Source of the DNA: an uncultured Thiomargarita sp.
GTDB taxonomy: Bacteria; Pseudomonadota; Gammaproteobacteria; Beggiatoales; Beggiatoaceae
Assembly (NCBI GenBank): GCA_964582525.1
Contig: CAZOSP010000004.1
Span: 670-64,669 of the forward strand
DNA: 64,000 nt
Reading direction: 5' to 3'
The position numbers and the translations under genes are program-made. Below, piece by piece: positions 46,296 through 47,030 of the stretch (position 1 is the first letter of the stretch; each line of letters opens with the position of its first letter). Under the pieces are notes generated by a model, which worked only from the letters and a program-made list of their open reading frames with translations, was not told the origin of the DNA and made no database searches.

Positions 46296-47030
46296 TTAGG
46301 AAAATAGGTAATCTTGCAAAAACGCTTGCGTCCATAGGTTGCCGAATTTTTGTTGTAATAACTTCAAGCCGGGGCTGTTGTCGCAATGGTGTTTTTTATA
46401 GCTTTTTAGGGCTTGCGCGTATGCTGCCTGTTGTGCGCTGGGCATCGGCTGCGCGTTTTGCAACATTGCCATGAGCGATTGCCAAATTTGCAAATGCACA
46501 TTGCCTAACAGTTGAAAATCTTGGCTATTTTGCGGACGCACAAAAAAATCGAGTCCCGAACGGCAGGCTTGATACCAATCAGGCATTTCTTCTGCCTGTT
46601 GCAGATGAGCAAAATCTTGATGGGCTTTCAATAGCACGCTGTTTATTTTTTCCGCACTGTGGGTTTGCGGTATTAATGATAAAGCGTCAATCACTGCGAC
46701 AACGGGTTTCTGCCCTAAGCTGACAAATTCCATTGCATAGACAGGTAAGTCGCAGTGCGTAGCGGGAAAAAAGAAAATATTGATAATGTCAATTTTGGGG
46801 GCTTGAATGAGTACGCTGCGCATTTCACCACACTTGTTAAGTCGATAAAAGTGGGCTTTTAAGCGCAGTTGCCCGGCGGTTTGTTGGGCATAATGAGGGG
46901 GTAAAGTGCGCGCCTGTAAATCAGTGATACAGGCTTGAGTGAGCGCGATGCTTTGTTGTAATAGGTAGGAAAAATCAGACACGGAAAATACACATCGGCA
47001 TGAAAATCCGCCAACAAAACAAAGCCCCAA
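46296..47030 (-). CDS. Ferredoxin-dependent bilin reductase family protein (PcyA/PebA/HY2 superfamily)
   Basis: It aligns by eye along most of Synechocystis PcyA. [40 protein letters not shown] matches [60 protein letters not shown] matches [41 protein letters not shown] matches [21 protein letters not shown]. The true start is possibly the GTG near 46982. Confidence 0.8.
   Translation of the reverse strand: [244 protein letters not shown]

Follow-up and report, generated by a model that had tools for sequence, protein, structure and literature searches.

The window, that is, the whole 64,000-nucleotide stretch of DNA that was analysed, contains a ferredoxin-dependent bilin reductase (FDBR) gene. 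It is flanked on one side by a CheB/CheR pair and the gene for a predicted ABM-fold protein, and on the other by a terminator-like hairpin and two genes for secreted mini-proteins. The features, in order along the window, are as follows.

44133–44588, minus strand: a 151-aa protein with a predicted ABM fold, of a family widespread in sulfur oxidisers
44759–45685, plus strand: CheR methyltransferase, with CheR_N and SAM domains by Pfam
45615–46250, plus strand: receiver-less CheB methylesterase, with PF01339 over residues 30–204 and the REC domain absent
46296–46982, minus strand: the most likely FDBR coding sequence, 228 aa with a GTG start, of pre-1 pre-PcyA type, drawn from PF05996, the AF2 model, the residue signature and homologue N-termini
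46983–47030, minus strand: 5' extension of the mechanically listed open reading frame, with a TTG start, probably untranslated, judged from its overlap with the 3' arm of the hairpin and from homologue starts
47022–47065, minus strand: terminator-like hairpin, with an 18-pair stem and a T-rich tail, between mini-protein 1 and the FDBR gene
47154–47438, minus strand: secreted mini-protein 1, 94 aa, with a signal peptide and four Cys
47554–47841, minus strand: secreted mini-protein 2, 95 aa, a paralogue of mini-protein 1, with a signal peptide and four Cys

The mechanically listed open reading frame at 46296–47030 (minus strand) was present and would encode 244 aa. Its TTG start falls within the 3' arm of the hairpin (47065–47022), the N-termini of close FDBR homologues read MSDF..., and P0001, the database copy of the window FDBR, is 228 aa long. 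Because of these three observations, the true FDBR coding sequence is most likely 46296–46982, starting at GTG, and the segment 46983–47030 is probably untranslated. Residues N84 and E101 of the 244-aa reading frame are thus N68 and E85 of the 228-aa protein, and the latter numbering is used for them below. CheB probably begins in fact at an internal ATG near 45669. In an Rfam scan of the window one tRNA was the only match.

The setting of the gene had been described in the initial annotation as gammaproteobacterial and non-phototrophic, and the genes of the window agree with that description. IlvD of the window was 77–81% identical to the IlvD proteins of named Beggiatoaceae (Ca. Venteria ishoeyi, Beggiatoa alba, B. 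leptomitoformis, Ca. Parabeggiatoa, Ca. Marithrix, Ca. Halobeggiatoa, Ca. Thiomargarita and Thioflexithrix). The nifL and nifA genes, located 4–7 kb from the FDBR gene, exceeded their equivalog cutoffs, with 542 bits (cutoff 242) and 698 bits (cutoff 529), respectively. Judged by sequence, and because of the IlvD identities in particular, the host belongs with the colourless sulfur bacteria; it is uncultured, Beggiatoaceae-like, diazotrophic and non-phototrophic.

In a Pfam search the match to PF05996 (Fe_bilin_red) reached 73.6 bits, above the gathering score of 31 (E 2.5e-20), and spanned residues 49–243 of the 244-aa reading frame and positions 29–227 of the 228 in the profile. In a phmmer search of PDB sequences PcyA was the best match (E 1.9e-7), followed by PebB, PebS and PebA. 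The AF2 model, for which 20 homologues were the input, had a pLDDT of 96.1 and a pTM of 0.92. When this model was compared with the PDB by Foldseek, it matched PcyA with TM 0.82–0.86, PebB with TM 0.84–0.88 and tomato HY2 with TM 0.88–0.89, with a probability of 1.0. The top 26 Foldseek matches were FDBRs only (PcyA, PebB, HY2 and PebA, TM 0.76–0.89), with RCCR coming next. By homology and by its predicted α/β/α sandwich fold, the window protein is an FDBR. The initial annotation had proposed a homologue of the PcyA-type enzymes, and both the profile search and the structural comparison with PcyA bear that proposal out.

Membership in the named FDBR families was rejected. The NCBIfam equivalogs for PcyA, PebA and PebB all matched the window protein far under their cutoffs, and assignment to PcyA, PebA, PebB or PebS fails on equivalog scores that are 4–10 times under the cutoffs. 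PcyA was the best of the NCBIfam models, and PcyA lies in the same major FDBR branch. However, the window protein is only 20–22% identical to PcyA, scored 56.5 bits against the cutoff of 206 for the PcyA equivalog (NF002760), and has replacements at all three of the PcyA residues Glu76, His88 and Asp105. Because of the low identity, the loss of the catalytic residues and the equivalog score under cutoff, phycocyanobilin is not the expected product. The PebA equivalog, for which the cutoff is 263, gave 49.6 bits, and the phmmer match to PebS had an E value of about 2e-4 over 58 residues.

The catalytic positions were read from a phmmer alignment to Synechocystis PcyA and from a MAFFT alignment of 172 sequences anchored on PcyA. 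In both, the His88 position of PcyA is Asn68 and the Asp105 position is Glu85. The Glu76 position is Val by phmmer (V57) or Gln by MAFFT (Q60), and so is non-acidic in either alignment. The position of HY2 Asp256, which corresponds to PcyA Asp220, is Ser203 in the MAFFT alignment. Two independent alignments thus concur with the earlier by-eye reading of a non-acidic residue, Asn and Glu at PcyA positions 76, 88 and 105, including the replacement of the canonical Asp by Glu. The meaning that had been given to these residues did not survive. The Asn had been taken as a sign of likeness to PebA and HY2, and the Glu-for-Asp replacement as an oddity; both belong instead to a published signature. 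Three pre-PcyA lineages in non-photosynthetic bacteria were defined by Rockwell 2023 (PMC10151467), of which pre-1, with members in β- and γ-proteobacteria among others, has the widest distribution. In pre-1 proteins Asp105 is replaced by Glu, His88 is replaced most often by Thr or Asn, the Glu76 position is without a consensus residue, and HY2 Asp256 is typically Ser (Frascogna 2026, PMC13446030). The characterised pre-1 enzyme MCC5789364, for example, has Ala63, Asn74, Glu91 and Ser202 (PMC13446030). The x/Asn68/Glu85/Ser203 pattern of the window protein is an exact fit to the pre-1 consensus. A phmmer search of 1.84 billion representative sequences gave 269 matches at E<=1e-3, 61 of them at E<=1e-30, and x/[N,T,S]/E/[S,T] was found in nearly all of the best 150 of the 269. 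On these alignments, the Glu-for-Asp replacement together with the Asn is typical of the lineage, already described, and no novelty.

The window protein was placed among its relatives in a bootstrapped neighbour-joining tree of 172 sequences. The window protein grouped with P0002 and P0003 (bootstrap 0.98), and P0004, from the Thiotrichales MAG BB31, joined them at 0.81. This small clade lay within a large radiation that held all 15 of the FDBRs from canonical pre-1 clusters, including that of the MCC5789364 locus; the PcyA references, as outgroup (bootstrap 1.0), and a pre-3-like A/T/D sequence lay outside it. Backbone support in this tree was at most 0.43, and it contained no named pre-2, pre-3 or POZ53557 references, so the placement of the window protein among pre-1 is supportive, not decisive. 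For that reason the pre-1 assignment draws chiefly on the residue signature, together with pairwise similarity and the grouping with members defined by their gene context. The FDBR encoded on scaffold JAFIGF010000120 (L016), which is the scaffold named as encoding MCC5789364 (PMC13446030), was 37% identical to the window protein over residues 16–226. With the pre-1 members MCC5789364 (from an Opitutales MAG) and POZ53557 (from 'M. psychrotolerans') the window protein shares the Pfam family, the fold and the x/N/E/S signature. It is 37–47% identical to the canonical-cluster pre-1 members among which it is nested in the tree, and its host is likewise non-photosynthetic, γ-proteobacteria having already been reported for pre-1. 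The tree points to a small Beggiatoaceae/Thiotrichales sub-branch of pre-1 made up of the window protein, P0002, P0003 and P0004. The FDBRs of this sub-branch diverge fast, being only 55–65% identical between genomes whose CheR proteins are 84% identical. Nothing matching such a sub-branch was found in the supplement text of PMC10151467.

Two other FDBR groups share part of the residue pattern. The pre-2 enzymes, represented by CAP_1520 of Chondromyces, resemble the window protein in having Asn where PcyA has His88 and Val where PcyA has Glu76, and their product is 3E-phytochromobilin. Unlike the window protein, with its Glu and Ser, they have Asp both at position 105 and at the HY2-256 position, and the three-gene clusters that encode them include genes for a B12-binding protein and a globin. 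Membership in pre-2 was rejected, given the Glu at position 105 and the failure to find B12-binding or globin genes nearby. The Asn at the His88-equivalent position is also common to HY2, PebA and PebS, the product of HY2 is phytochromobilin, and tomato HY2 gave the highest structural match (TM up to 0.89), but those enzymes keep the Asp at position 105 where the window protein has Glu.

Among the 15 FDBRs from canonical pre-1 contexts, 38 alignment columns are at least 85% conserved, and the window protein is identical at 36 of them, the two departures being P125A and D132E. Those 36 take in Glu85 and Asn68 as well as the RSGxDFFxRP motif and the HH pair. The FDBR gene had a dN/dS of ~0.13 (Nei-Gojobori) when compared with its closest relative, L023, a pair for which dS is near saturation. 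Because dN/dS is about 0.13, the gene is taken to be maintained, and under purifying selection. MCC5789364 binds biliverdin and makes 3E-phytochromobilin in an anaerobic, ferredoxin-driven in vitro assay (PMC13446030). The earliest pre-1 enzyme to be assayed, POZ53557, showed very low in vivo activity (PMC13446030); activity is not to be assumed for each pre-1 member. By analogy with the characterised enzyme we infer the substrate, product and electron donor, and the likeliest activity of the window protein would be the two-electron, A-ring reduction of biliverdin to 3E-phytochromobilin. In such a reaction Glu85 would stand in place of the proton-donating Asp105 of PcyA, and Asn68 in place of His88. 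The window protein is a genuine bilin reductase, and probably an active one.

For a comparison of gene context, the open reading frames within 8 kb of the FDBR gene were clustered in 21 loci, and recurrent families were named by Pfam. Most loci, from Opitutales/Puniceicoccaceae, Methylococcaceae, Lysobacterales/Xanthomonas-like bacteria and other MAGs, carry a stereotyped cluster. Its parts are a heme oxygenase (at some loci), an HHH_3 protein, a 2Fe-2S ferredoxin, a V4R protein, an unannotated protein which is presumably the Fe-S protein of the published cluster, a phycobilisome-like globin (BBAG), a second V4R protein, a Ser/Thr kinase, an unknown protein, sometimes a DSP phosphatase, the FDBR and a PP2C phosphatase. 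Genes of this canonical cluster were found at 13 loci from the family search and at L035 and L036, making 15 loci; two further relatives, P0006 and P0008, share it. At the window, by contrast with these pre-1 loci, tblastn with all of the cluster proteins detected no gene for heme oxygenase, 2Fe-2S ferredoxin, a V4R protein, BBAG globin or Ser/Thr kinase anywhere in the 64 kb. Pfam scans of the large open reading frames over the 64 kb likewise found no heme oxygenase, phytochrome, globin, V4R protein or 2Fe-2S ferredoxin. The earlier observation that no heme oxygenase, phytochrome or phycobiliprotein gene is nearby thus stands. The window FDBR is an orphan, parted from the canonical pre-1 partners within 64 kb. 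Other local orphans are P0005 (at L026), P0010 (at L037), P0016 (at L038) and the FDBR at L019. Pre-1 clusters are known to be variable, with members sometimes distant, so that the cluster is typical, not obligatory (PMC10151467).

The reading that we consider likely is that the gene encodes a functional pre-1 pre-PcyA FDBR, present as an orphan in an uncultured Beggiatoaceae-like sulfur-oxidising diazotroph. In the sub-branch the FDBR would have parted from the heme oxygenase, the 2Fe-2S ferredoxin, the V4R pair, the BBAG globin and the Ser/Thr kinase, and, because of this separation, the biliverdin source and the bilin acceptor would lie elsewhere in the genome or be unlike the canonical ones. 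Against this reading stand the absence, within 64 kb, of genes for heme oxygenase, ferredoxin and a bilin-binding protein, as well as the low activity of POZ53557, the weak deep branches of the tree, the quick divergence of the sub-branch and the decay of one orphan copy described below. The same absence is consistent with an orphan FDBR whose function has changed, so that it acts on another tetrapyrrole, binds without catalysis, or is on the way to loss. Fast sequence divergence within the sub-branch would also fit a change of function, as would the plasticity described for pre-PcyA proteins, cyclic tetrapyrroles being bound by some variants, and the finding that POZ53557 is barely active in vivo (PMC13446030). 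In addition, the orphan FDBR gene of a Thiomargarita relative (L022) is frameshifted, which indicates that orphan copies can decay. However, a dN/dS of about 0.13 argues that the window gene is maintained, the intact state of 36 of the 38 conserved positions argues for unchanged chemistry, and the reading frame is intact with a very confident AF2 model. A change of function is, in our judgement, unlikely.

The remaining question raised by the locus was whether its neighbours replace the missing partners. The initial annotation had suggested a bilin-making module feeding a sensor; in its fuller form, the FDBR and its neighbours, i.e., the ABM-fold protein as a heme degrader, CheR/CheB and the mini-proteins, would make up a new bilin-making and bilin-sensing module. 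The neighbours themselves were correctly named: Pfam shows CheR and a CheB with the methylesterase domain only adjoining the FDBR gene, the predicted model of the 151-aa protein matches the ABM superfamily, and the two secreted Cys-rich mini-proteins are paralogues.

In favour of the module, the FDBR-CheB-CheR adjacency recurs in BB31 (L001/L002/L004), the only other genome in which it does. There CheR and CheB adjoin the FDBR gene, an RR-PAS-GGDEF gene lying in between, and a true ABM gene (PF03992) is also near. On the other hand, the window and L004 genomes are related, with 84% identity for CheR, 70% for CheB and only 55% for FDBR. Because these related genomes also share a prs-ispE-OmpA block, inherited synteny may be a sufficient explanation for the adjacency. 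CheR and CheB are absent beside the FDBR gene in the closest relative, L023. At the window the CheR/CheB operon is not co-oriented with the FDBR gene; it converges on the 3' end of that gene and so lies outside its operon. In addition, a second, fused CheB-CheR-PAS protein is encoded 30 kb away in the window, which indicates that such modules are common in the genome. CheR and CheB were rejected as FDBR partners, given their occurrence beside it in one related genome only, their convergent orientation and the second CheB-CheR module. Nothing specific was found in the literature on receiver-less CheB/CheR fusions.

The 151-aa protein was considered as a source of linear tetrapyrrole. Its predicted model (pLDDT 77) was matched by TT1380, IsdI/IsdG, SnoaB and others (TMt 0.6–0.85), so that the heme-degrading IsdI and IsdG are among its top structural matches, a point in favour of the module. 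By eye, its invariant residues N17, W88 and H98 resemble what we take to be the Asn/Trp/His catalytic triad of IsdG. At the level of sequence, in contrast, no kinship of the 151-aa protein with IsdG or with the ABM gene of L004 was found: a Pfam ABM match was lacking, a search of PDB sequences gave no IsdG match, and the comparison with the L004 gene (PF03992) was likewise negative. The 151-aa family has >4000 members with 75–90% identity, against 269 FDBR representatives. Its carriers include Ectothiorhodospira, Thioalkalivibrio, Halochromatium, Sedimenticola and Sulfuritalea, and it occurs in organisms without an FDBR. A family far wider than that of the FDBR, and unlike the ABM gene of L004, was rejected as a conserved FDBR partner.

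The mini-protein pair is found upstream of the FDBR gene, in the same order, in L023–L025, with 87–94% identity, and this conserved arrangement also favours a module. The L023 orthologue of mini-protein 1 is 87% identical and lies upstream of the FDBR gene, and mini-protein 2 had a dN/dS of 0.03 against L023. Away from these relatives the association did not hold. FDBR, CheR and CheB were absent from the flanks of all six metagenomic mini-protein loci (L029–L034), two of which carry the paralogous pair, and the FDBR gene of L004 is preceded by DUF4398/OmpA genes, not by mini-proteins. With no FDBR at any of the six loci of metagenomic relatives, the mini-proteins were rejected as FDBR partners. 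With the terminator-like hairpin in between, simple co-transcription of the FDBR gene and the mini-protein genes seems doubtful. The idea that the hairpin is itself a conserved regulatory element was rejected, since L023, the closest relative, does not retain it.

Taken across the sub-branch, there is no neighbour common to all three of the genomes: L023 is without CheR/CheB, and L004 is without the mini-proteins and the 151-aa protein. The distribution data largely refute the module, which we regard as very unlikely. The data fit an ancestral order of mini2-mini1-FDBR-CheB-CheR that would have decayed differently in each descendant, and not a functional module.

A bolder form of the idea is that a pre-1 FDBR in the Beggiatoaceae has been uncoupled from the heme oxygenase/V4R/BBAG cluster and rewired into a different system. 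The linear tetrapyrrole might then, for example, come from an ABM-fold (IsdG-like) protein, and the signal might pass via receiver-less CheR/CheB to an output of PAS/GGDEF type. If true, such rewiring would give bacteria that glide, shun light and lack photosynthesis a bilin-based sensor, for light or for redox state, with a new architecture; we regard it as very unlikely.

We return, then, to an orphan but functional pre-1 FDBR as the preferred reading. The residue pattern that looked exotic is already described and biochemically characterised, and the locus alone raises no new question; gene context is the sole unusual aspect of the window FDBR. The pre-PcyA enzymes are of interest because the pathway to the phycobilisome chromophore is proposed to descend from them. 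The locus is modestly new in offering a maintained orphan pre-1 gene, in a Beggiatoaceae/Thiotrichales sub-branch. It shows that a pre-1 enzyme can persist under purifying selection without heme oxygenase, ferredoxin, V4R, BBAG or kinase neighbours, and the orphan copy thus provides a data point on whether pre-1 function depends on the cluster.

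The start of the FDBR (ferredoxin-dependent bilin reductase) gene is preceded by a strong terminator-like hairpin, a mere 40 nt or so upstream of its start codon, and beyond the hairpin are the genes for two paralogous, Cys-rich mini-proteins:

47022-47065, minus strand: hairpin
47154-47438 and 47554-47841, minus strand: mini-protein pair

The closest relative has no conserved counterpart of this hairpin, and the stretch from the hairpin to the FDBR start showed no sigma-70-like promoter. The mini-proteins, which match no known family, are secreted, Lys/Arg-rich and about 65 residues long when mature, with four invariant Cys residues. 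Relatives are found at the closest relative's FDBR locus (L023, 424-1093) and at two further mini-protein loci (L029, 5645-6264; L030, 5711-6249). The dN/dS values of 0.03-0.06 indicate very strong purifying selection, and the mini-proteins are better conserved than the adjoining FDBR. In several metagenomes their genes occur as tandem pairs or singletons, independently of the FDBR.

Just upstream of the mini-proteins, an ORF with no assigned function is enclosed by an inverted repeat, and the repeat segment is adjoined by a ParA/TraL-like gene. A TonB-dependent receptor gene follows, 3.4 kb from the FDBR:

48057-48087 and 49513-49543: arms of the 31-nt inverted repeat, 87% complementary
48677-49318: 213-aa ORF between the arms
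49717-50427: ParA/TraL-like gene
50393-52456, plus strand: TonB-dependent receptor

Similar short-ORF peptides reveal a longer, imperfect similarity around the repeat arms, and the segment could be a small piece of DNA that is mobile or has been rearranged. The receptor's best matches are to vitamin B12 and heme/hemoglobin receptor families, at about 122-127 bits, all below the family cutoffs (317-600). A connection with the uptake of tetrapyrroles is conceivable.

Canonical pre-1 clusters from other genomes (L005-L017, L021, L035 and L036) were also taken in. The 2023 paper (PMC10151467) gives HO, Fe-S, V4R and BBAG genes as cluster members, and these loci hold further conserved genes in addition. 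One for a Ser/Thr protein kinase is present in 13 of the loci and one for a 2Fe-2S Fer2 ferredoxin in 10; HHH_3 protein genes and PP2C phosphatase genes were each found in six, and DSP-type phosphatase genes in four. A Pyr_redox_2 reductase and an RR-LuxR regulator are encoded in some of the clusters as well. Neither a kinase nor a phosphatase is discussed for pre-1 clusters in the main text of PMC10151467. The kinase parallels SpkG of Synechocystis, which adjoins the slr0144-0149 cluster. In a Thiomargarita sp. MAG, the FDBR homologue (L022, 8101-8797) is split by a frameshift into two overlapping ORFs, with no canonical cluster upstream; this reflects either the decay of an orphan copy or a mistake in the assembly.

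Two further proteins in the window deserve description:

14108-17809, plus strand: 1233-aa fusion of CheB methylesterase, CheR methyltransferase and several PAS domains
44133-44588, minus strand: 151-aa ABM-fold protein

The fusion, which lacks a receiver or kinase domain, is the second receiver-less CheB/CheR module within the 64 kb. The 151-aa protein matches no Pfam or NCBIfam family, and some sources label it 'ligand-binding protein SH3'. Its conservation is extreme, with a mean column identity of 81% and invariant residues N17, C38, W88, H94, H98, C114 and E115/E119/E120. It is predicted to fold as an ABM (dimeric alpha+beta) barrel that carries an extra loop at residues 58-80 as well as a C-terminal helix. 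Its only recurring sequence signal, a weak one, is to sulfur oxygenase reductase (SOR; Pfam E 0.06, PDB profile E 0.05-1), the profile match pairing residues 78-129 with SOR 70-123. Sulfur-oxidising gamma- and beta-proteobacteria hold over 4000 relatives that are 75-90% identical, and the protein could be an uncharacterised sulfur- or metal-related enzyme.
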